Below are positions 29,375 to 42,122 of a stretch of 44,246 bases of DNA, piece by piece; within the stretch, counting starts at the first letter, position 1; the number at the start of each line of letters is the position of its first letter. Made by a program: the position numbers and the translations under genes. The stretch is taken from the IMG/VR virus record IMGVR_UViG_3300045988_013393, positions 1 through 44,246 of that record; one strand, 5' to 3'. The stretch comes from a virus (taxonomy: Duplodnaviria; Heunggongvirae; Uroviricota; Caudoviricetes). A model generated the notes under the pieces. The model was not told the DNA's origin. It worked only from the letters and a program-made list of their open reading frames with translations, and made no database searches.

Positions 29375-29677
29375 TTAGCTTACGGTTCCTGCGTTTTTAA
29401 GCGCAGTCAACAGATCTGCTACGGTAGTGCGCAGCGCGGTAACATCAGTTCGGAGTTTGTTGTACTCAGCTACAAGGGCACCGAACTCGGTCTTAGTCGG
29501 GGCGTCAGCAGACTGCGCTCCTTCACCAGCGGTAACCGCCGCAGCAGGTGCGGCTACAGTAGCTGACTTTTTAACGCCACCAACTACGCTGGTAGTAGCA
29601 GGCGTGACTGGGATATCAAAGTCGCCGAAATCGACATTCTGAAGGCTGCGCGGCAAGCCTTTTCCGGTCTTGGCCAT
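29375..29677 (-). CDS. Hypothetical head-associated protein (100 aa)
   Basis: ORF between capsid gene and Ig-like gene. Confidence 0.4.
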   Translation of the reverse strand: MAKTGKGLPRSLQNVDFGDFDIPVTPATTSVVGGVKKSATVAAPAAAVTAGEGAQSADAPTKTEFGALVAEYNKLRTDVTALRTTVADLLTALKNAGTVS

Positions 29678-29736
29678 AATTTACCTCTTAGTAAATGAAA
29701 AGAGGGACCGAAGTCCCTCTCGATTATATCTTAACC

Positions 29737-30786
29737 TTAAGCACCGACGCCAGTTACCAGGAAGGCAATAGGTACATGCTTACGGTCAACAACACGGTTC
29801 CAGTTGGAGGCGTTCGCCAGGTCCTGCCAGGAAGCAGAGCGGGCGATAGTCTCGGTCCCGTTGCCAGTGATTACCGCGCTGGTGAAGCTGTAACCAAACG
29901 GATGCAGCAACCAGGTCTTACGGGTCCACAGGGTTTCAACGCCACCACCGTTACCACGAGACGCTTCGCGTTCGTATTCCAGCGGGTTAGACGGGTTGCC
30001 CTCGCCGTAACCGATAGCACCGTTACCGAAGATGATGGAGATGAACTTACGGCTCGGGCTGGGGCCGACTACGGTCATGCTGTCGTCAACAATCACGCGG
30101 TAGCCCTGGTAAGTAGCAAACATGGTGTTGTTATCGGCGTCGCGGATGAAGTCGATAAGCTGCTGTTTACGTGCCTGCGCATATACGAAGCTGTGCATCG
30201 CGATAGCGCCCAACACTTCACCGCCGTTGCCCATCAGCGCATCACCCATAGTCTGGGTAGCGTCGATGAACGCGCCTGCGTCGAAGCCCAGAGTAGCGGA
30301 CACGTCGATTACCATGTCATTCTGCTCGTGGTAAGCATCGGTGGCGGCTACGTTGTCGTTGTACAGACCGAGCGCGGTAGCAATCAGACGGCGTTGTGCC
30401 TGACGCTGCCAGAAGTTATCCAGACGGGACGCTACGGATTGCAGCGGGTTCTGGCTGGTCAGTTCAACAGTCAAATCCGCCTGGCCGAAACCTTCGTTCA
30501 GGTAAGCTACGCGAACGTCCATCTCACCGGTTTGCACGTTACGCGGGGTGGCGACGTCCTGATATACATCGTTCGAGTAGTTCGGCTCGATAGAGGTATC
30601 AATCGCTTTCCAGTACGGCAGAACAGCTTTGTTGGACGGGCCGTTTGCGATAGCGGCGGCGTACGGAGTCTGGGTCAGAATACCTGACTGGAAGAACGCG
30701 GTTTTCTCTACCGGGTCCTCTGTCATGTAAGACAGAATGACCGATTCTTTACCAGTTACGATATCGCCGATAGTAGTAATTGCCAT
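29737..30786 (-). CDS. Major capsid protein (349 aa)
   Basis: Directly after scaffold gene (TAATG overlap); size and position. Confidence 0.65.
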   Translation of the reverse strand: MAITTIGDIVTGKESVILSYMTEDPVEKTAFFQSGILTQTPYAAAIANGPSNKAVLPYWKAIDTSIEPNYSNDVYQDVATPRNVQTGEMDVRVAYLNEGFGQADLTVELTSQNPLQSVASRLDNFWQRQAQRRLIATALGLYNDNVAATDAYHEQNDMVIDVSATLGFDAGAFIDATQTMGDALMGNGGEVLGAIAMHSFVYAQARKQQLIDFIRDADNNTMFATYQGYRVIVDDSMTVVGPSPSRKFISIIFGNGAIGYGEGNPSNPLEYEREASRGNGGGVETLWTRKTWLLHPFGYSFTSAVITGNGTETIARSASWQDLANASNWNRVVDRKHVPIAFLVTGVGA

Positions 30787-31490
30787 TATTTTTTCCTCAG
30801 GGCTTTAAGTTGCCGTTCAAATTCGGCAGGGTTCGATTCGTACAGAGCGATACGCTCCGCTTCACTCATGTCTTTAAACGCTGGTGCGGCCCCGCCGCCT
30901 TTGCTACCGGAAGCCCCGCCGCCGGAAGCTGCATTTGCTTTAATCAAATGCGAAAACGCTTTGTGTTCGCGCAGGTACTTGCGGAACTGTTCCGGGTCAG
31001 TTGTGATTACGTTGCCGTCTGCACCAACAAACTTAGTAACCACGTCATCGCCTTCAAACTCAGTCTTAACGAACGGAGCAAGAATGTCTACTGCTTCCGG
31101 TGTGATGAAATCACCTGCGAAAGAGCCTAACACCGCTTTACGTTCGCTGCCGAGGATGCGCTCTGCCATTTTGGAGATGCGACCATCTTTCTCGGCTAAC
31201 ACCGGGTCATACTGGCTACGAATCGTCTTTTCGAACTCGTCCATCTTACCGGCGGCTTTTAGCGCCTCCTGGTGCGCGCGCTGACGTTCCTCTTCGGCCT
31301 CTCTTGCTTTACGAGCGGCTTCTTTCTTCTCGTTCAGCAATGCTTCCTGGTTAGCCTTAAGCCCGGCAACTTCTTTCTCAATCAGCGCCTGCACTTCTTC
31401 GGCTGTGTACATTTTAGGAGCGTCACCGCCACCTGATTTATCTTCTGCCCCAGCTTCTTCCTGGAGCGGATAACGTAAAAAACGATTCAT
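30786..31490 (-). CDS. Scaffolding protein (ATG 31490; ORF track extends to 31544 via TTG)
   Basis: Charged, Ala/Glu/Lys-rich helical protein directly upstream of capsid gene. Confidence 0.6.
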   Translation of the reverse strand: MNRFLRYPLQEEAGAEDKSGGGDAPKMYTAEEVQALIEKEVAGLKANQEALLNEKKEAARKAREAEEERQRAHQEALKAAGKMDEFEKTIRSQYDPVLAEKDGRISKMAERILGSERKAVLGSFAGDFITPEAVDILAPFVKTEFEGDDVVTKFVGADGNVITTDPEQFRKYLREHKAFSHLIKANAASGGGASGSKGGGAAPAFKDMSEAERIALYESNPAEFERQLKALRKK

Positions 31491-31544
31491 AGTCAGTATG
31501 TCCCCTGGACGTTGGAACCCGGGCCACCCGGATTTACATGTCAA

Positions 31545-31590
31545 GAATAAATTATTCCAACATGCAAGGCAACTATTCCAGAATATTCCT
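31545..31590. promoter_or_regulatory. Cluster of GAATA/TATTC palindromes (GAATAAaTTATTC, TATTCcaGAATA, GAATATTC) between Rz1 and scaffold gene
   Basis: Three overlapping inverted repeats sharing the half-site of the promoter operators; possible late promoter TTGCCT-N17-TATTCT on minus strand. Confidence 0.35.
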
Positions 31591-31818
31591 CACATAATCC
31601 TGCAACTCGTAAACCTGCTGCCGTAGTTTTCGCCCGCAGTCAATACTCATAACATCAGCAGACAGGTCTTCGTCAGCATCAGCTTTTGCGTCACTAAATT
31701 TACACGGTTCAACCATCAAAGACGCTTTCACGGGCGGCAATGTGTTCGGAGTGTATTCCGGTGCGCAGCCCGTTATCCCAATTATTACAGCCGACAGGAA
31801 TAATTTATTCATGGTCAT
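31573..31818 (-). CDS. Outer-membrane spanin lipoprotein (Rz1-like)
   Basis: Signal peptide with lipobox ITGC (MTMNKLFLSAVIIGITGC); overlaps the 3' end of the Rz-like gene. Confidence 0.65.
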   Translation of the reverse strand: MTMNKLFLSAVIIGITGCAPEYTPNTLPPVKASLMVEPCKFSDAKADADEDLSADVMSIDCGRKLRQQVYELQDYVRNILE

Positions 31819-32161
31819 ATCCTGAGATGTGATTGGCGTTATCGATGGCGGCCTGTTTCAGCTTAACGCGTGCTTCATCGAAAGTGCAGACATTGCGGCC
31901 AGGCGTCCTGACGTACTTAACGACTTCCTGCGTAATGGTTACGGTGCGGGCAGCACCCTGCTGTTCAGCGACGGCGGCACGGGTGTCGTTTTGTTGCTGC
32001 CGTTGTGTTTTCTTCGCTAGCTCCGCCTGTGCTTTCTGCTGTTGCTGCGAAACGAGATTCGCCCGGCCTTCGTTCCAGCCGCTGCGATACTGGTAGATTC
32101 CGTAGCCGTATGTCAGGAGGATGAAACATGCTCCAGCTACGACAGTTGCGTTAAGATTCAT
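31805..32161 (-). CDS. Inner-membrane spanin (Rz-like)
   Basis: N-terminal TM segment then Gln/Ala-rich coiled coil; paired with downstream lipoprotein. Confidence 0.65.
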   Translation of the reverse strand: MNLNATVVAGACFILLTYGYGIYQYRSGWNEGRANLVSQQQQKAQAELAKKTQRQQQNDTRAAVAEQQGAARTVTITQEVVKYVRTPGRNVCTFDEARVKLKQAAIDNANHISGYDHE

Positions 32162-32412
32162 GTTTCCCCTTTCTCGATAAGTAAAGCCCCGCCTTAAAGC
32201 GGGGCGCTAGTCCTTATCATTTAAACATAGAAACGGCGTAATCTCAGTAAACCAGTTACTTTTTACACAAGCAATAGAGTATGGCCCTTCCGAACGCGTC
32301 AGCGTAACTACACTCAGGACTTACGTCCCGCTCCGTTACCTGCCCGCGCCGCGGTCGCTTGCTCATACTTCACAAGCTCAGGTGGAGCTTATCATATTTT
32401 CAGTGAAAAGTC

Positions 32413-32458
32413 AACTATTCGAATAGTTTATTCCAACGTTTACAATTGAGTGGAATAA
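32413..32458. promoter_or_regulatory. Perfect 16-bp palindrome AACTATTCGAATAGTT plus inverted repeat TTATTCCA-N15-TGGAATAA
   Basis: Read directly; contains CTATTC/GAATAG half-sites; lies just upstream of a class B promoter. Confidence 0.4.
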
Positions 32459-32480
32459 CTGGAATACGTAAATAAATAGT

Positions 32481-32509
32481 TTGCGCGCACCAACATAATA
32501 GGGTACTAT
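32481..32509 (+). promoter_or_regulatory. Class B promoter (TTGCGC-N17-TACTAT) driving plus-strand moron 32537
   Basis: Same conserved element and leader (ttaacttaaacaggag) as at 22553. Confidence 0.5.
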
Positions 32510-32536
32510 TCAGTTAACTTAAACAGGAGATGATAA

Positions 32537-33058
32537 ATGGTTACTACAGTAATTACTTTCCCTGCGTATGTAGGGGCGAAAATATGCAGGGCTAAAAATG
32601 ATGTTCGCTACTATTTGAACGCTTTTTACATAGACCCTGAAGGATTGATAGTGTCTACGGACGGTCATAGATTGTTCGGCGACAATGTGAAGACCAACGT
32701 TGAGAAAGGGACTCTCATAGACATCAAAGGGAGAGAGCCTTCTAAATTTAACTACGCGGAGGTAAACCACGACAACGGCAGTGTATCTTTCTATGACGAT
32801 AATCGTGCGCTTATATGTACACTTCCGGTAGATGTTGTAGAAGGAAACTTTCCTGACTGGAGACGCGTGGCGCACATCACACCGGGTGTTGTCGATAGTA
32901 TAGGGTTCACTCTGCGCTATTTGGCAGACGCGTACAAGATTTCTAAGGCATACAAAAATGAAATTGCTCGTTTCGATTTCCAGGACCAAACCAGAGGATG
33001 CAAAATACAATTTTCAAACACGGCCTTTATGGTGTTAATGCCTGCGCGATTTAAATAA
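32537..33058 (+). CDS. Hypothetical protein (173 aa), plus-strand moron in head module
   Basis: Own promoter, AGGAG RBS and own terminator; opposite strand to all neighbours; no family recognised. Confidence 0.5.
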   Translation: MVTTVITFPAYVGAKICRAKNDVRYYLNAFYIDPEGLIVSTDGHRLFGDNVKTNVEKGTLIDIKGREPSKFNYAEVNHDNGSVSFYDDNRALICTLPVDVVEGNFPDWRRVAHITPGVVDSIGFTLRYLADAYKISKAYKNEIARFDFQDQTRGCKIQFSNTAFMVLMPARFK

Positions 33059-33062
33059 AACT

Positions 33063-33086
33063 AAGGCCCCTTACGGGGCCTTTTAT
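33063..33086. terminator. Intrinsic terminator (AAGGCCCC-ttac-GGGGCCTT + TTTTAT)
   Basis: Immediately after moron stop; same stem as the other terminators. Confidence 0.65.
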
Positions 33087-33544
33087 CATTCTGGCTTAGT
33101 GACCTTCGCCGCTTTACTGACAGCCTCTACACCATCGGCATCAGTAACTTTAACGAAGTATTCACCTGCTGCGTTAACCGTCAGAGACAAAGCCTCTTCC
33201 GGGACGTTTACCACTTCCTTCCCGTCTTTGTACCAGGTCAGCACATACGGCGCTTTGCCCGCCTTAACTTCGACGGTGATGGTGGCGCTACCGTCGACCA
33301 GCTCGGTGTCTTTCGGTTGCACAGAGAAATACACATCGCCAGCATCTGCCAGATACGGAATCTCATAAAGCATACCAGCAGCAGAGAGTGCGATACCGGT
33401 CTTGTCCGCATACGGCATCTCGTCTACAGGTGTACCTAGTACACTTTCATCTTCAACGTAGGTTACGTTCTCACCAGAACCGGATACACGGGCGTACTGG
33501 ACTACGCGACGCGACGGCACATCAGTTACTTTAAAAAAGCCCAT
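33086..33544 (-). CDS. Ig-like domain protein (152 aa), probable decoration protein
   Basis: C-terminal YVLTWYKDGKEV...GEYFVKV Ig-like signature. Confidence 0.5.
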   Translation of the reverse strand: MGFFKVTDVPSRRVVQYARVSGSGENVTYVEDESVLGTPVDEMPYADKTGIALSAAGMLYEIPYLADAGDVYFSVQPKDTELVDGSATITVEVKAGKAPYVLTWYKDGKEVVNVPEEALSLTVNAAGEYFVKVTDADGVEAVSKAAKVTKPE

Positions 33545-33547
33545 AAA

Positions 33548-34171
33548 CTAAACCTCTTTCATTGAGTTAATCTTACGTAAGACGCCTTCGAAAAGGCGTG
33601 GGTCTATGCTATCGCAAAGGCCTTTGTATTCATATGCTAATTCAATTTTTCTATGAAACCAGGCTACATGTGCCTCTTGAGCGGTTTCGTAAGCGCCTAT
33701 TTGTTCAGATACACAATCCACGGATACTTGGGCGATGAATCTTTTCTTTTGTTTATGAAAATGTACCCCAAGCGGGTGTTTGCCTCGAAGAGCGTCGTGG
33801 GCTGTGAGGAAAGTGTTAAGGGATTTGGGGATGAAAACACAGTTAGAAGCGTCATAAACCTTATTTCCTGGATTCAGTAAATCCTTATCTATCTGCCACC
33901 CAGGTACATAAAAATTATCAAACCAGACCTTGAAATTACTGAACACCAACCAATCGTCCGACACGCGGCAGCCTATATAGGTTCTGTTTCTTTGCTGCCA
34001 TTTCTTGTCGTAGCACCTCTTTAACATGTTCTTCCATCCGGCATAGGACGCTATATGCACCCCTCCGTGACTTATCGGTGAAACATCATTAATACCAACC
34101 CCAAAAACAATTCCCATATTAAATCCTATAAGAAAACCCCATGAAGATTGGTCGATGCCAGAGATAGGCAT
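33548..34171 (-). CDS. AP2-domain DNA-binding protein, degenerate HNH homing-endonuclease-like
   Basis: C-terminal AP2-like segment (GVHFHKQKKRFIAQV...IGAYETAQEAHVAW); central HNH-like stretch with Lys in place of His (QIDKDLLNPGNKVY); true start may be internal. Confidence 0.4.
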   Translation of the reverse strand: MPISGIDQSSWGFLIGFNMGIVFGVGINDVSPISHGGVHIASYAGWKNMLKRCYDKKWQQRNRTYIGCRVSDDWLVFSNFKVWFDNFYVPGWQIDKDLLNPGNKVYDASNCVFIPKSLNTFLTAHDALRGKHPLGVHFHKQKKRFIAQVSVDCVSEQIGAYETAQEAHVAWFHRKIELAYEYKGLCDSIDPRLFEGVLRKINSMKEV

Positions 34172-34241
34172 ACCTTCATGGGGTTATATTCTTTCTCTAT
34201 TTTTAGTAGTTCACCGACCAAAGCTAGCTACTAGGTATACT

Positions 34242-35285
34242 TTATACCGACCTAAGATACTCAGCAACCCTGTTGTCTAACTCCGCCATCTCCTTTAGGG
34301 TTAAAGGTCTACCAAAAGCGTCAACAGATATTACCCGGAATTCCTCTGGTGATACCCCACTATTCCTGAATATCGCACCGCGGGTCGGCCCGAGTGCTTC
34401 GTCCACGAACCACGCCGGTTGTTGTTTCAGGAACTCGTAGTAAGTGGTGTCTGCGCTTACCTGAGTACCTCCGTCCGCGCCCTTAGCCGCACGTTTTGCG
34501 CCTTTATCGAGGAAGTCGAACTCTGAACTGATTACCGGGGCCGTGCACGACCGACAATTCGGATGGGCTGGGGGCATCGGCCCTTTACCAATTTCCCATG
34601 TCATTCCGTCTCTGGCTCTGCAAATCGTACTGGTACGGCTATCCAGCGTTGATACCCATTCATATCTCTCAATGATGTCGTCGTTCTGTCGGTATGTCTC
34701 GTTACGGGCTTCGTTGGATACGTGGGACAGCGCAGTACGTATTACCGTAGCGGCGTTGCGTTCAGAGATGTCAGCCAGTCCACCTGCGCCTACGACATTC
34801 TTAACGATCTGCCGCGTGGTTTGGCCCTGAACAAAGCCCATCTTAACGCCTGTTACGAGACGTGCTACTTCCGTTTCACCCCAACCCGACATCAGCTTAG
34901 AGAAATCAACAGGCTTGTCGCTCAATGAGAGCGGTTGAAACTCGGCGGCGGCCCACACCTGTTCGGCGGTAGGCGTAACAAATTCAGCATTAACGTTGGT
35001 GGTAAGTGTCTTTACGTTCCACCCTGCTTCATATGCCGCCAGCTCCTTAAGGTCTTCTGTCAGCTTTGTCTGCCAGTCACCTGTAAGCCCGGTCAGTGCT
35101 TCCTCAAGGTCGCGTAACAATTTATTCAGTCGCGCGGTGCTGCGACCGTCGTCGCCGAATAGCAACACCTGCCGTTTGATTTCGCCCCGCATTTCCTGAA
35201 TGAACGGCGCGAGGTCTTTCACTTCACCGGATGCGGTGCGTTGCAGCCATATCTGGTGGCTGATTAGTGATGTAAGTAGTGGCAT
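34242..35285 (-). CDS. Head morphogenesis / minor head protein (SPP1 gp7-like position)
   Basis: 347-aa ORF directly downstream of portal. Confidence 0.5.
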   Translation of the reverse strand: MPLLTSLISHQIWLQRTASGEVKDLAPFIQEMRGEIKRQVLLFGDDGRSTARLNKLLRDLEEALTGLTGDWQTKLTEDLKELAAYEAGWNVKTLTTNVNAEFVTPTAEQVWAAAEFQPLSLSDKPVDFSKLMSGWGETEVARLVTGVKMGFVQGQTTRQIVKNVVGAGGLADISERNAATVIRTALSHVSNEARNETYRQNDDIIERYEWVSTLDSRTSTICRARDGMTWEIGKGPMPPAHPNCRSCTAPVISSEFDFLDKGAKRAAKGADGGTQVSADTTYYEFLKQQPAWFVDEALGPTRGAIFRNSGVSPEEFRVISVDAFGRPLTLKEMAELDNRVAEYLRSV

Positions 35286-40546: not shown

Positions 40547-40628
40547 TTCTCTCTACTCCGTTCTCGTTGTCGATGGAGTAAATATAATAGGGTCGAAGGT
40601 AATAGTCAACTAGTCATTGCGGAAAATA

Positions 40629-40662
40629 GATAAAAAAAATCCCGGCTGGGTCAGGGCCGGGA
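40629..40662 (-). terminator. Intrinsic terminator on minus strand (ATCCCGGC-loop-GCCGGGAT + T8)
   Basis: 8-bp stem followed by eight T on minus strand (plus A-run 40631-40638). Confidence 0.6.
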
Positions 40663-40702
40663 TAAAACTGGAGAGTAGAGGGATGAAGCAGGAGGTGATT
40701 TA

Positions 40703-40731
40703 AGTATCGTCGGATTAGTCTTAGGTGTCAA
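40703..40731 (-). promoter_or_regulatory. Candidate promoter (TTGACA-N17-GATACT) for a short minus-strand transcript
   Basis: Consensus -35 on minus strand; would give a ~65-nt pyrimidine-rich RNA ending at terminator 40629-40662. Confidence 0.25.
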
Positions 40732-40857
40732 CAGAGATTCTCCGGCACGCGTTACCGCACTTTGGCCCGACCTTGTTACGGGTCCGCGGGGGTGATGGTA
40801 CCCGGGATGCCCTCAATGTTGTTTAATCTTCTGTTGCCGTTAGTCTATCAAACTACG

Positions 40858-41067: not shown

Positions 41068-41571
41068 TCATTTAACAGCCCTCCCAATAGCCTCCGCCTC
41101 CTGCCACGGTTTACCGTCGAACAGCGCCAGACGACCAGCTACGCGACGGCGTAGGCCGAGCACAGGCTCGAGTTTACCGGTTTTCGGGTTGCGTTGGTTA
41201 ATGAACTGACTCATCTTATGCCGTAAGGTTGTGATGTCCCCCTGCCGTAGCGCCTTACCAGTTCCAGTAGTAGCCGCAATCACGCCAGTCCCTGCGTTGA
41301 ACACCAGGTCGACAACGGCATCAAACTGAGCCTGGGTCAGTGAGGGGTGCGCGACTTCATCGACTGCTTTCACCGCCCACTGCATATCACGGTTCAGTAA
41401 CAGCAACCCCTGGCCTTCGGTAATCTTCTGGCCTTCGTACACATCCGGTCCGGTATGGCCCCAGCCTATAGTCCAGTATTTCTCGTTCTTTGTTGCTTTG
41501 TATGCAGTTCCGCGAAACTTCTCCCACGCCTTTTTGAACTGCAGCCCATTATCTGAAATATTTCGAGACAC
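41068..41571 (-). CDS. Endolysin, lysozyme-like (GTG start at 41571; ORF track extends to 41622)
   Basis: Lysozyme-like catalytic region (AWEKFRG...YWTIGWGHTG); GGAGGA RBS before the GTG. Confidence 0.65.
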   Translation of the reverse strand: MSRNISDNGLQFKKAWEKFRGTAYKATKNEKYWTIGWGHTGPDVYEGQKITEGQGLLLLNRDMQWAVKAVDEVAHPSLTQAQFDAVVDLVFNAGTGVIAATTGTGKALRQGDITTLRHKMSQFINQRNPKTGKLEPVLGLRRRVAGRLALFDGKPWQEAEAIGRAVK

Positions 41572-41821
41572 GCTTATATCCTCCGTACGACAACCACGCC
41601 TGACGAATCTGACGCAGCGCAACTAATGTGATTAACGTCTCAGGCAACGTTGGTGACACGCTGCCCTGTAACAGGTGGATACATCCGGCGGCGCAGACAA
41701 TCACAGTCAGGATATAGAGCACACGCCCGAATAACCCGTCGTCCACGTGCCCATTATACACACTGAACAGGGACGAAGCGCCCATTGCCAGCATTACGAC
41801 AAACCAGAATAGCTCAGTCAT
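41549..41821 (-). CDS. Holin/antiholin-like membrane protein (90 aa, two TM segments)
   Basis: MTELFWFVVMLAMGASS and ILTVIVCAAGCIHLL hydrophobic segments; immediately upstream of endolysin. Confidence 0.5.
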   Translation of the reverse strand: MTELFWFVVMLAMGASSLFSVYNGHVDDGLFGRVLYILTVIVCAAGCIHLLQGSVSPTLPETLITLVALRQIRQAWLSYGGYKRVSKYFR

Positions 41822-42122
41822 GAGGTCCTCCCGGGCGGGAAATATCGCCACCCGATACGATGCCAGAAAGGCGGGAATAGATAGGCATCCAGAGAATGGC
41901 AATGATGAATCCGAGGCCAGCTATCTCGCGCTCACCGGTAATACCGAACCATTGAGCGGCAAGAGGTGCACCGAAAATGGCACACGCGAAGCCGGTGAGA
42001 AGAAATACCAGTCCGTCGACTGGACCGGATATAGACTTTTTATGTTGTCTTAGTCCGACCAATCCACCGACCAGTGCGGCGGTGAGAAGCCACCCCGTCA
42101 CTGTTTCAGTAAATTTATCCAA
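41814..42122 (-). CDS. Holin (102 aa, TTG start with GGAGGA RBS)
   Basis: Multiple TM segments, charged C-terminus; first gene of lysis cassette. Confidence 0.5.
   Translation of the reverse strand: MDKFTETVTGWLLTAALVGGLVGLRQHKKSISGPVDGLVFLLTGFACAIFGAPLAAQWFGITGEREIAGLGFIIAILWMPIYSRLSGIVSGGDISRPGGPHD

Follow-up and report, generated by a model that had tools for sequence, protein, structure and literature searches.

A probable 'Jersey'-family spanin pair among the head genes of a Kagunavirus: a standard gene position, a recombinant allele and a predicted structured leader

Two genes resembling a spanin pair lie among the head genes of the phage studied here, 8,907 nt (8.9 kb, i-spanin start to endolysin) from its lysis cassette, which raises the question of whether this split is unusual and whether the pair was acquired and is regulated separately. 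The window, that is the whole 44,246-nt stretch of DNA analyzed, is a complete Kagunavirus genome (Guernseyvirinae). A preliminary description had reported an Rz-like/Rz1-like pair about 9 kb from the holin and endolysin genes and had called such a split uncommon. The pair (PHROG Rz-like spanin matches, a transmembrane segment and a lipobox) and the distance were confirmed, with all elements lying where they had been placed. The supposed rarity did not hold: Dhillonvirus and three genera of Guernseyvirinae share the layout as a fixed trait, GenBank relatives are annotated with it, and it is in print. Indeed, the separation of spanins from the lysis cassette is the normal, already published arrangement for this group of Escherichia coli and Salmonella phages, and for this reason we consider the layout ordinary. 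Based on homology, topology and gene context, the pair is very probably an ordinary two-component spanin of the 'Jersey' family, found where Guernseyvirinae normally carry these genes. As a finding, the split layout brings nothing new and amounts to a rediscovery of how Guernseyvirinae genomes are normally laid out; only the leader RNA deserves follow-up. The features are listed in Table 1.

Table 1. Coordinates in the window of the spanin locus, its neighbors and the lysis cassette.
Feature	Position	Strand	Basis or remark
Hoc-like decoration gene	33544-33086		upstream of spanins
Bidirectional terminator-like hairpin	33063..33082	.	terminator scan; terminators annotated on both strands in Schulenburg
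Half-size beta-clamp-like gene	32537..33058	+	phrog_3007, phrog_947; weak TIGR00663 dnaN match
Genome-wide motif TGAATAGTAnCCTATTAT, one copy	32495..32512	-	putative phage promoter or operator
Cluster A, TATTCC/GGAATA half-sites	32415..32466	-	just upstream of P2
Promoter-like site P2	32386..32414	-	-35 TTGACT (32414..32409), 17-nt spacer, extended -10 TGATAAGCT (hexamer 32391..32386)
36-aa ORF (MSKRPRRGQ...)	32256..32366	-	annotated 'hypothetical protein' in Schulenburg
Predicted RNA rod, 76 nt, four stacked helices and GUAA tetraloop cap	32283..32358	-	folding and covariation
Extended hairpin, GC core 32205..32186	32176..32218	-	ends 14 nt before i-spanin start codon
i-spanin, 118 aa	31805..32161	-	ORF; phrog_2536 Rz-like spanin, 7e-52
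Recombinant core of spanin pair	31615..32010, breakpoints approximate (+/-15 nt)	-	sliding identity
o-spanin lipoprotein, 79 aa	31573..31812	-	phrog_5672 (2e-20), phrog_1267; lipobox ITG/C
Cluster B, GGAATA/TATTC half-sites (GGAATAATTTATTC and TTGACA)	31544..31590	-	between o-spanin stop and scaffold
Small hairpin CCGGG-UGG-CCCGG	31518..31531	-	just upstream of scaffold ribosome-binding site
Head scaffolding protein gene	30786..31490	-	phrog_206, 1e-54; annotated scaffolding protein in Schulenburg
Major capsid protein gene	29737..30786	-	phrog_247, 2e-117
Terminator-like site after capsid gene	29721..29700		terminator scan
Lysis cassette, holin-holin-endolysin	41068..42122	-	PHROG matches
Holin	42122..41814	-	phrog_2359/phrog_2508 for the two holins; 3 TM peaks
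Second holin/antiholin	about 41821..41549	-	phrog_2359/phrog_2508 for the two holins; 2 TM peaks
Endolysin	ORF 41622..41068, start approximate	-	phrog_7, phrog_33703

The only strongly hydrophobic stretch of the i-spanin covers residues 5-23, consistent with an N-terminal transmembrane (TM) helix, a TM segment having been noticed in the preliminary description, and nothing hydrophobic follows in the hydropathy profile. Helices were predicted at residues 5-84 and 94-112 in a single-sequence AlphaFold (AF2) model (mean pLDDT 70), and one periplasmic cysteine (C92) is present. With its small size, single N-terminal TM segment and periplasmic domain that is mostly helical, the protein has the form expected of the i-spanin in a two-component (Rz/Rz1 type) system. 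Neither the window phage nor K1G has a Lys or Arg before this segment, whereas the other aligned relatives have one, which slightly weakens the positive-inside argument. Identity of the i-spanin was 75% to K1G, 72% to FSL SP-031 and 38% to HK578.

For the o-spanin, the longest ORF (31573..31818, minus strand) codes for 81 aa from an alternative ATG at 31818, but the second ATG, at 31812, is the likelier start since it is preceded by AGGA 7 nt upstream and agrees with the annotated starts in Shemara and FSL SP-031. With this start, the two spanin genes overlap by 8 nt (14 nt with the upstream ATG), and an 8-bp overlap is classed as 'separated' architecture by Kongari et al. (PMC6139136). The signal MNKLFLSAVIIGITG/C carries the lipobox ITG/C with Ala, and no Asp, at position +2; a rule-based assessment of the lipobox and outer-membrane signal thus upheld the ITGC motif of the preliminary description, and no other ORF in the 44-kb window had a credible lipobox. 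Two periplasmic cysteines, C37 and C59, do not vary across the family alignment and, together with C92 of the i-spanin, are available for possible intermolecular disulfides. The best phage match was the Shemara o-spanin (88.8%), with identities of 89% to Shemara, 68% to FSL SP-031 and 39% to HK578. Both proteins were significantly similar to members of the 'Jersey' family, the similarity on which assignment to this family is based.

The holin, second holin-like gene and lysozyme previously placed at 41068-42122 were supported by PHROG matches. No spanin-like ORF was found downstream of the endolysin, where a terminator-like site occurs at about 40890-40863, nor a second spanin or remnant beside the endolysin, nor another spanin-like gene in the window. 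The pair lies outside the lysis cassette, a location which is usual for spanins and not required, as the T4 exception illustrates. Following the established Rz/Rz1 model, the i-spanin would be anchored in the inner membrane by its N-terminal helix and extend a helical rod into the periplasm, and the o-spanin would receive a lipid at Cys16, be sorted to the outer membrane and bind the i-spanin. The peptidoglycan mesh would keep this complex inactive; once the inner membrane has been opened by the distant holins and the wall cleared by the endolysin, the freed complexes would fuse the two membranes and complete lysis. The split could be tolerated since the holin would set the timing and the spanins would be harmless until the wall is gone, so that they would need late expression only and not adjacency to the holin and endolysin genes.

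A comparison of gene order, proposed in the preliminary description and run here on relatives, found spanins at the equivalent head-module site, annotated as such in close relatives. The order head-morphogenesis/Hoc, spanins, scaffold/capsid recurs in Kagunavirus, Jerseyvirus, Cornellvirus and Dhillonvirus, and the head-module position is common to Schulenburg, K1G, SETP7, Shemara, FSL SP-031 and HK578. Spanin homologues occur in about 660 phage records, and 71 of the 76 IMG/VR spanin loci have head-gene neighbors. Two loci, L104 and L110, carry homologues at 38-39% identity in canonical holin-endolysin-i/o-spanin cassettes. The split itself is stated or implied in three publications (PMC6763661, PMC9825357, PMC9409062). 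In the window, the spanins do lie between the decoration and scaffold genes as first described, with the scaffold gene directly downstream, but the bidirectional terminator and the opposite-strand clamp-like gene also intervene on the Hoc side. Upstream of the leader, this clamp-like gene sits in a cargo slot of variable content, which holds other genes in Shemara and FSL SP-031 and in which the gene is absent in K1G and SETP7.

Independent acquisition had been suggested for this locus. Read as a recent event, it would make the spanin cassette a separately acquired, moron-like insertion with its own promoter, specific to the phage or its genus. Several features fit such an insertion, namely a promoter-like site and leader of its own, the flanking of the cassette by two half-site clusters that are the only two of the genome, and the adjoining variable cargo slot; moreover, homologous spanins in ordinary lysis cassettes elsewhere indicate that the pair moved between contexts at some point, and its middle was clearly exchanged by recombination. 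However, the same position is found in the three Guernseyvirinae genera, in Dhillonvirus and at most of the IMG/VR loci, so that any relocation predates these lineages, and nothing spanin-like was left beside the endolysin; the direction of the move is not inferable from these data. The conserved position argues for an old relocation, and we regard a recent insertion as unlikely. Still less probable, the two ORFs could have no part in lysis and encode head-assembly accessories, or a membrane protein/lipoprotein pair serving some other function, for example superinfection exclusion; the PHROG label would then have been carried over by similarity. Phage lipoproteins with exclusion roles do exist (T5 Llp, the Cor family), the genes are located in the head module, neither the i-spanin nor the o-spanin is matched by a curated Pfam or NCBIfam model, and we found no experimental study of this family in the literature. 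Yet overlapping genes for a TM protein and a lipoprotein, with conserved periplasmic cysteines and sizes typical of spanins, are hard to reconcile with this alternative, as are the homologues found directly after holin and endolysin genes in L104 and L110; a phage of a Gram-negative host with holins and an endolysin would also be left with no other spanin candidate. The reading as a 'Jersey' two-component spanin is the one retained below.

Judging from sliding identity, the recent event at this locus is an internal recombination that replaced the middle of the spanin pair. A core of about 390 nt (~32010-31615) consists of Cornellvirus-like DNA set in a Kagunavirus backbone. Outside the core, identity is 95-100% to K1G/Schulenburg and 42-72% to Shemara/FSL SP-031; inside, it is 80-100% to Shemara and 0-82%, mostly below 70%, to K1G/Schulenburg. 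The exchanged block spans the C-terminal half of the i-spanin and most of the o-spanin: i-spanin residues 1-57 are identical to K1G, and residues 58-118 are of Cornellvirus type. K1G, Schulenburg and SETP7 have the overlapped spanin architecture (155 nt shared), whereas the window phage has the separated one because its central ~390 nt is Cornellvirus-type. This allele represents a natural switch from overlapped to separated architecture through the exchange of one block, and bears on the question of architecture transitions raised by Kongari et al.

The separate regulation proposed in the preliminary description survives as an apparent regulatory region of the pair's own, made of a conserved promoter-like site and a predicted structured leader. 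The region upstream of the i-spanin is 375 nt long (32162-32536) rather than the ~330 nt first given. The promoter-like site P2 appears to be a conserved extended -10 promoter: its -35 element, spacing and TGnTA are kept in most Kagunavirus-, Jersey- and Cornell-type leaders, and the Shemara-like group (L039, Shemara) gave no alignment at this site. A simple promoter scanner did not list P2, whose -10 hexamer TAAGCT agrees with TATAAT at only 3 of 6 positions. Just upstream, cluster A includes the perfect palindrome CTATTCGAATAG (32415-32426), centered at about -41.5 relative to P2, and is kept in most leaders of the three genera, the Shemara-like group again excepted. In the whole genome, just two sites, A and B, have three or more half-sites within 120 nt. 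Palindromes had been rightly noticed in the leader, but GAATAG alone is not enriched in the genome (24 matches vs 18.5 expected), only the composite motifs are. The motif TGAATAGTAnCCTATTAT has seven copies in the window against 0.09 expected, and PHIRE gave the same consensus for phage fBC-Eco01 (PMC9825357). We found no transcriptome study of this phage group in the literature.

Downstream of P2, folding pointed to a structured RNA. The 230-nt leader has a minimum free energy z-score of -2.9, and the rod was predicted independently in 15 of 17 sequence variants. In the alignment fitted to the rod model (R1), 94.9% of cells were paired, compared with 25-39% in slid controls, and 10 of the 23 pairs change on both sides; 0 of 500 shuffles reached the observed score. 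These values come from an alignment fitted to the model, which comprises no more than 17 distinct sequences drawn from two or three clades. Per-variant folds and covariance-model alignment were used in place of RNAalifold, which on a MAFFT alignment across three genera gave a poor consensus (-8.6 kcal/mol), MAFFT mis-registering the stems. An Rfam search of the window and of 12 related loci gave no match at gathering thresholds (best E-values in the leader 3.3-4, at chance level). An R1 search at E <= 1 did not detect the Cornell-type and L095-type leaders. These leaders are long and structured, share the motifs AGCGRG before a hairpin, CGGAAGGG and GACUUA(C/G)G, and are not reliably alignable.

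The GC hairpin seen in the preliminary description was recovered before the i-spanin, terminator-like in the scan, and its flanks also pair, lengthening the helix. Compensatory changes were observed in the core (C-G to G-C in the Jersey type, to U-A in L059) and at the base (G-C to U-A). In the window phage, the stem followed by UUUACUUAU passes the terminator scan, and the stem is followed by UUAGCGUAU in Jersey-type and by CACUGUUAC in Cornell-type leaders; since the U-tract is not kept in these, a terminator role outside Kagunavirus is doubtful. A helix sequestering the start codon (AUGUUU/AAACAU), predicted in Kagunavirus, was dropped as it is not kept in the Jersey type.

The leader could alternatively be protein-coding, its conservation reflecting coding constraint on the 36-aa arginine-rich ORF as a small regulator, for example an N-like peptide binding a GNRA hairpin. 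This ORF is intact in most Kagunavirus leaders and annotated in Schulenburg, its product has an arginine-rich N-terminus, and the same RNA contains a hairpin capped by GUAA. However, one-base indels cut it to 9 or 17 aa or shift its frame in six variants (L010, L012, L016, L026, L027, L029), L007 lacks the start codon, and the Jersey- and Cornell-type leaders, which keep the RNA structure, all lack the ORF. The changes affect both partners of a base pair together, and some involve G-U pairs that are meaningful only for RNA of the minus strand; no good ribosome-binding site precedes the ATG, and the arginine codons are explained as a by-product of the GC-rich stem. We rejected the N-like peptide on account of the frameshifts and the absence in relatives; the ORF is probably not a gene, and a coding leader seems very improbable. 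The transcript would open with a conserved structured leader, the 76-nt rod and the hairpin before the ribosome-binding site, most likely with a role in read-through, processing, stability or translation. As a tentative extension, which we hold to be possible and no better than that, the 230-nt leader may be a new clade-wide cis-regulatory RNA (GNRA-capped rod and pre-RBS hairpin), transcribed from an extended -10 promoter under a TATTC/GAATA-binding factor and gating the late spanin-scaffold-capsid unit through antitermination/attenuation, RNase III processing or translational control. If so, it would supersede an erroneous 'hypothetical protein' annotation carried by hundreds of Guernseyvirinae genomes. 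A functional leader RNA would also offer a first way into how late genes are controlled in these phages, which are in wide use for therapy and biocontrol.

The spanins had also been described as embedded in the capsid operon. They are probably co-transcribed with the downstream scaffold and major capsid genes, as suggested by the terminator scan, which found sites following the Hoc-like and the capsid genes and none between o-spanin and scaffold; toward the upstream head genes, a terminator and an opposite-strand gene separate them. The late unit would run from P2 through the leader, i-spanin, o-spanin, scaffold and major capsid genes to the terminator, with the spanin pair promoter-proximal. 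Cluster B overlaps the last o-spanin codons and is kept upstream of the scaffold in K1G, SETP7, Shemara and FSL SP-031, even with a gene between spanins and scaffold. The TTGACA there was rejected as a promoter because no usable -10 lies at 16-18 nt. The small scaffold-proximal hairpin is kept with compensatory changes in SETP7, Shemara, FSL SP-031 and HK578.

Among known systems, the closest is the 'Jersey' two-component spanin family defined by Kongari et al. 2018 (PMC6139136) from Jersey, SETP3/7, K1G, K1H, K1ind, HK578, FSL SP-031 and others. The pair shares with it homologous i- and o-spanins, two conserved o-spanin periplasmic cysteines, a polyQ-rich first helix and the position between head-morphogenesis and scaffold genes; it differs in its separated architecture, reported there only for three FSL SP-031-like phages (Cornellvirus). 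Schulenburg/Schulenberg (MK931438; PMC6763661), Snoke, Sciku, Golestan, fBC-Eco01 and K1ind3 have 92-95% nucleotide identity over the region and the same gene order, and spanins are called at this site in annotated Kagunavirus genomes. For Schulenburg, the separation of spanins from holin/antiholin and endolysin has been stated (PMC6763661). Its leader is nearly identical, but its i-spanin has 128 aa, its overlapped o-spanin is mis-started in the record at 48 aa, without the lipobox that the full ORF has from a GTG further upstream, and the 36-aa leader ORF is annotated as a gene, which our comparison argues against. Since o-spanins in this clade are often mis-started or missed, and many records say only 'hypothetical protein', the present assignments may be of use for annotation.

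The pair resembles lambda Rz/Rz1 in its predicted makeup, an inner-membrane protein and an outer-membrane lipoprotein spanning the periplasm, and both phages have a one-strand gene order with lysis genes followed by terminase, portal and head genes. It differs in showing no detectable similarity to the Rz/Rz1 families in Pfam, and in having spanin genes that are separated and not embedded, 8.9 kb downstream of the endolysin. The lambda late leader (PR', 6S RNA, tR', then S, R and Rz/Rz1) offers a similar layout of promoter, ~200-nt leader and terminator-like hairpin before lysis genes, although the U-tract of the hairpin here is not conserved in sister genera; we take this resemblance to PR'-tR' to be an analogy from layout, not membership. 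Finally, T4 also carries its spanins away from both the holin (t) and the endolysin (e) genes: pseT.3 and pseT.2 make up a separated i-/o-spanin pair of 117 and 83 aa, similar in size to the present one (PMC6139136). T4 spanins belong to another family and all T4 lysis genes are scattered, whereas here the holins and endolysin stay in a cassette, but T4 shows that having spanins unlinked to the other lysis genes is known and viable.

The window, 44,246 bases long, comprises the entire genome of a phage in the genus Kagunavirus (subfamily Guernseyvirinae). With positions 29500-34500 as query, 485 phage records were matched, the best being the E. coli phages Schulenburg, fFiEco02, fPoEco01, fBC-Eco01, and K1ind3 (92-95% identity), and the relatives of the first 25 kb agree with these. 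Both spanin proteins already occur in public collections in exactly this form. All elements named in the preliminary description were found where it had placed them. A bidirectional terminator and an opposite-strand gene cut the spanin genes off from the upstream head genes, and the gene order of the window has no terminator between the spanins and the scaffold and capsid genes. The opposite-strand gene, a half-size beta-sliding-clamp-like gene surrounded by head-module genes, occupies a variable cargo site adjoining the spanin leader; this slot holds a metallophosphatase in Shemara, another ORF in FSL SP-031, and is empty in K1G and SETP7. Among relatives, the free-standing HNH homing-endonuclease gene is present in Schulenburg and missing from K1G and SETP7.

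Features of the phage genome around the spanin and lysis genes, in transcription order, followed by leader elements and other sites
Feature	Position	Strand	Remarks
Holin, holin, endolysin	42122-41068	-	First in transcription order; followed by terminator-like site
Small genes		-	Between that site and small terminase
Small terminase, large terminase, portal, head morphogenesis (Mu F-like), HNH endonuclease, Hoc-like decoration		-	In this order; HNH at 33548-34171
Bidirectional terminator			Between Hoc-like and beta-clamp-like genes
Beta-clamp-like gene	32537-33058	+	Between bidirectional terminator and leader
Leader, i-spanin, o-spanin, scaffold, major capsid		-	Leader at 32162-32536 (375 nt); major capsid followed by terminator-like site
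i-spanin ORF	32161..31805	-	118 aa; PHROG phrog_2536 'Rz-like spanin' (7e-52)
o-spanin ORF	31818..31573	-	81 aa; phrog_5672 (2e-20) and phrog_1267
Head fibre, second decoration protein, adaptor		-	After terminator-like site following major capsid
36-aa leader ORF	32366..32256	-
76-nt rod	32358..32283	-
Leader hairpin	32218..32176	-
P2 promoter-like site	32414..32386	-	TTGACT, 17 nt, extended -10 TGATAAGCT
TGAATAGTAnCCTATTAT copies	1270, 4854, 4898, 7017, 43862	+
TGAATAGTAnCCTATTAT copies	22567, 32495	-
Small hairpin	31518-31531	-	Before scaffold ribosome-binding site
Candidate small RNA	40625-40735	-

The sole hydrophobic stretch of the i-spanin spans residues 5-23, and its single-sequence AlphaFold model contains helices 5-84 and 94-112 (mean pLDDT 70). 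The o-spanin has the signal MNKLFLSAVIIGITG preceding Cys, with Ala at +2, and a six-frame scan of the whole genome revealed no other credible lipobox ORF. Its second ATG (31812; 79 aa) is the likelier start, since AGGA lies 7 nt upstream and the resulting 8-nt gene overlap equals that of Shemara and FSL SP-031. Distant homologues of both proteins (38-39% identity each) sit in textbook lysis cassettes, namely P21-type holin, phage lysozyme, i-spanin, and overlapped o-spanin in one locus (L104) and 3-TM holin, GH19 endolysin, i-spanin, and o-spanin in another (L110), which supports the spanin assignment beyond database labels. Across the family, both of the o-spanin's periplasmic cysteines are fully conserved and the i-spanin cysteine nearly so, a pattern that agrees with the published description of the Jersey spanin family (PMC6139136). 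In this clade, o-spanin annotations are often wrong, and many relatives call the pair only 'hypothetical protein'. The o-spanin recorded for Schulenburg (locus L001, 3669-3992) is a 48-aa form lacking signal and lipobox; the full protein has 87 aa, its GTG start codon lying within the i-spanin gene.

The lysis cassette encodes two holins, phrog_2359 (three TM peaks) and phrog_2508 (two TM peaks), plus an endolysin, and lies 8,907 nt from the i-spanin start, in line with the roughly 9 kb reported earlier. No spanin candidate was found 3' of the endolysin, a region made up of a terminator-like site and approximately 520 nt devoid of sizeable ORFs. This split had been called uncommon and taken to suggest independent acquisition or regulation. 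Gene-order comparison does not support the view that it is uncommon and independently acquired, as the spanins occupy the same position in the Kagunavirus phages Schulenburg and K1G, the Jerseyvirus phage SETP7, the Cornellvirus phages Shemara and FSL SP-031, and the Dhillonvirus phage HK578. Using tblastn, o-spanin and i-spanin relatives were detected in 660 and 670 phage records, respectively, most of which are from Salmonella and Escherichia phages belonging to these groups. Head genes (scaffold, capsid, Hoc-like, or head-morphogenesis) were found within 1.2 kb in 71 of the 76 IMG/VR loci carrying an i-spanin relative. The published genomes of fBC-Eco01 (Gp11/12 vs. Gp68-70; PMC9825357), Golestan (ORF7/8 vs. 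ORF66-68), and SeF1 (Gp_009/010 vs. Gp_063-065) give the spanins low gene numbers and the holins and endolysin high ones, and the 'Jersey' spanin family of Kongari et al. (PMC6139136), with 27-28 members, includes K1G, HK578, and FSL SP-031. The separation of the spanins from the lysis cassette is an already known, clade-wide, and old feature.

The spanin pair of this phage is itself a chimera. The i-spanin is identical to K1G over residues 1-57 and Cornellvirus-type over residues 58-118, and the o-spanin is Shemara-like (89%) except at its C-terminus, where ten residues (LQDYVRNILE) are Kagunavirus-type. Compared as DNA, the region is 95-100% identical to K1G and Schulenburg down to position ~32010, 0-82% (mostly <70%) from there to ~31615, then 95-100% again; the pattern against Shemara is the opposite. 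As a result, the two genes overlap by 8 nt, vs. 155 nt in K1G, Schulenburg, and SETP7, placing the pair in the 'separated' class, which Kongari et al. (PMC6139136) described in the Jersey family only from FSL SP-031-like phages. The exchanged block comprises the C-terminal half of the i-spanin and most of the o-spanin, which would fit with interacting parts traveling together. This recombinant allele of separated architecture is a modest addition to what is known.

The 36-aa leader ORF is recorded as a 'hypothetical protein' in Schulenburg. It lacks conservation: six variants have it shortened to 9 or 17 aa or shifted in frame, one related locus (L007) has no start codon for it, and Jersey- and Cornell-type leaders do not contain it. 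The 230-nt leader fold was stronger than shuffles (z = -2.9), and the 76-nt rod was predicted separately in 15 of the 17 distinct variants, which come from two genera. A covariance model built on Kagunavirus variants was used to align 43 matches, Jersey types included. In this alignment, which is fitted to its own model and holds only 17 distinct rows from few clades, 94.9% of cells were paired and 10 of 23 pairs changed on both sides. None of 500 shuffles reached the observed covariation score, and sliding the partners by 1-3 columns lowered pairing to 25-39%. Frequent G-U pairs indicate that the structure belongs to RNA of the spanin strand. The GC hairpin noted earlier forms the core of an extended hairpin, which stops 14 nt short of the i-spanin start codon and has compensatory changes in its core (C-G to G-C or U-A) and base (G-C to U-A); it passes a terminator scan in this phage, and its U-tract is not retained in sister genera. 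The leader has no Rfam match. Speculatively, it might control read-through, undergo RNase III processing, affect stability, or dampen spanin translation atop a very highly expressed operon. This covarying, un-catalogued RNA is a modest addition, and the only part that could repay experiments. Distant relatives (L095-L102; 53-63% i-spanin identity) carry a different long leader in the 330 nt 5' of the i-spanin homologue, also without Rfam match. In it, the motifs TTGCGAGT/ACTCGCAA are repeated and a long-range helix (UUGCUGCCGUU/AACGGCAGCAA) encloses ~190 nt; L100 has a similar helix (CUGCCGUA/UACGGCAG). The motif GACUUA(C/G)G is common to all of them, L100 included, and to Cornell-type leaders.

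Most leaders of the Kagunavirus, Jersey, and Cornell types retain the spacing and key bases of P2; those of the Shemara-like group do not align at this site. Directly 5' of P2 lies the perfect palindrome CTATTCGAATAG, with further TATTCC/GGAATA half-sites. GAATAG on its own, highlighted previously, was not enriched. Clusters of at least three half-sites occur at only two places genome-wide, the leader and just 3' of o-spanin, 5' of scaffold. In Shemara and FSL SP-031, another gene intervenes and the second cluster stays beside scaffold, so the spanin unit and scaffold probably share a putative DNA-binding factor. Seven copies of TGAATAGTAnCCTATTAT (0.09 expected) are present in the window, one at the top of the leader, each pointing the same way as the genes downstream. 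In the fBC-Eco01 paper (PMC9825357), this consensus, obtained by PHIRE scan, was ascribed to a phage RNA polymerase; we consider a putative host-polymerase promoter (-10 TATTAT) with an overlapping operator more likely than a phage polymerase site. Two other elements were observed. The small hairpin before scaffold (CCGGG-UGG-CCCGG) is retained out to HK578; its stem changes are compensatory and its UGG loop does not vary. The 520 nt poor in ORFs that follow the endolysin contain the candidate small RNA, which has a sigma-70-like promoter (TTGACA-17-GATACT), a predicted ~65-nt C/U-rich transcript (CACCUCCUGCUUCAUCCCUCUACUCUCC), and a clean terminator (CCCGGC...GCCGGG plus eight T; hairpin z = -2.7).

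In lambda Rz/Rz1, formation of the spanin complex, its restraint by peptidoglycan, and membrane fusion are established. Carried over from there, the standard account is the best-supported one for this spanin family: i-spanin and o-spanin would assemble a periplasm-spanning complex in late infection and be held back by peptidoglycan, the holins (42122-41549) would set the timing and the endolysin strip the wall, and the spanins would then fuse the inner and outer membranes. These steps also appear in review sections of PMC6139136. Since timing would be set by the holin, the spanin genes would need only late expression, so that their separation could be tolerated here as in T4, in which the spanins are not linked to the holin or the endolysin (Kongari et al., PMC6139136).
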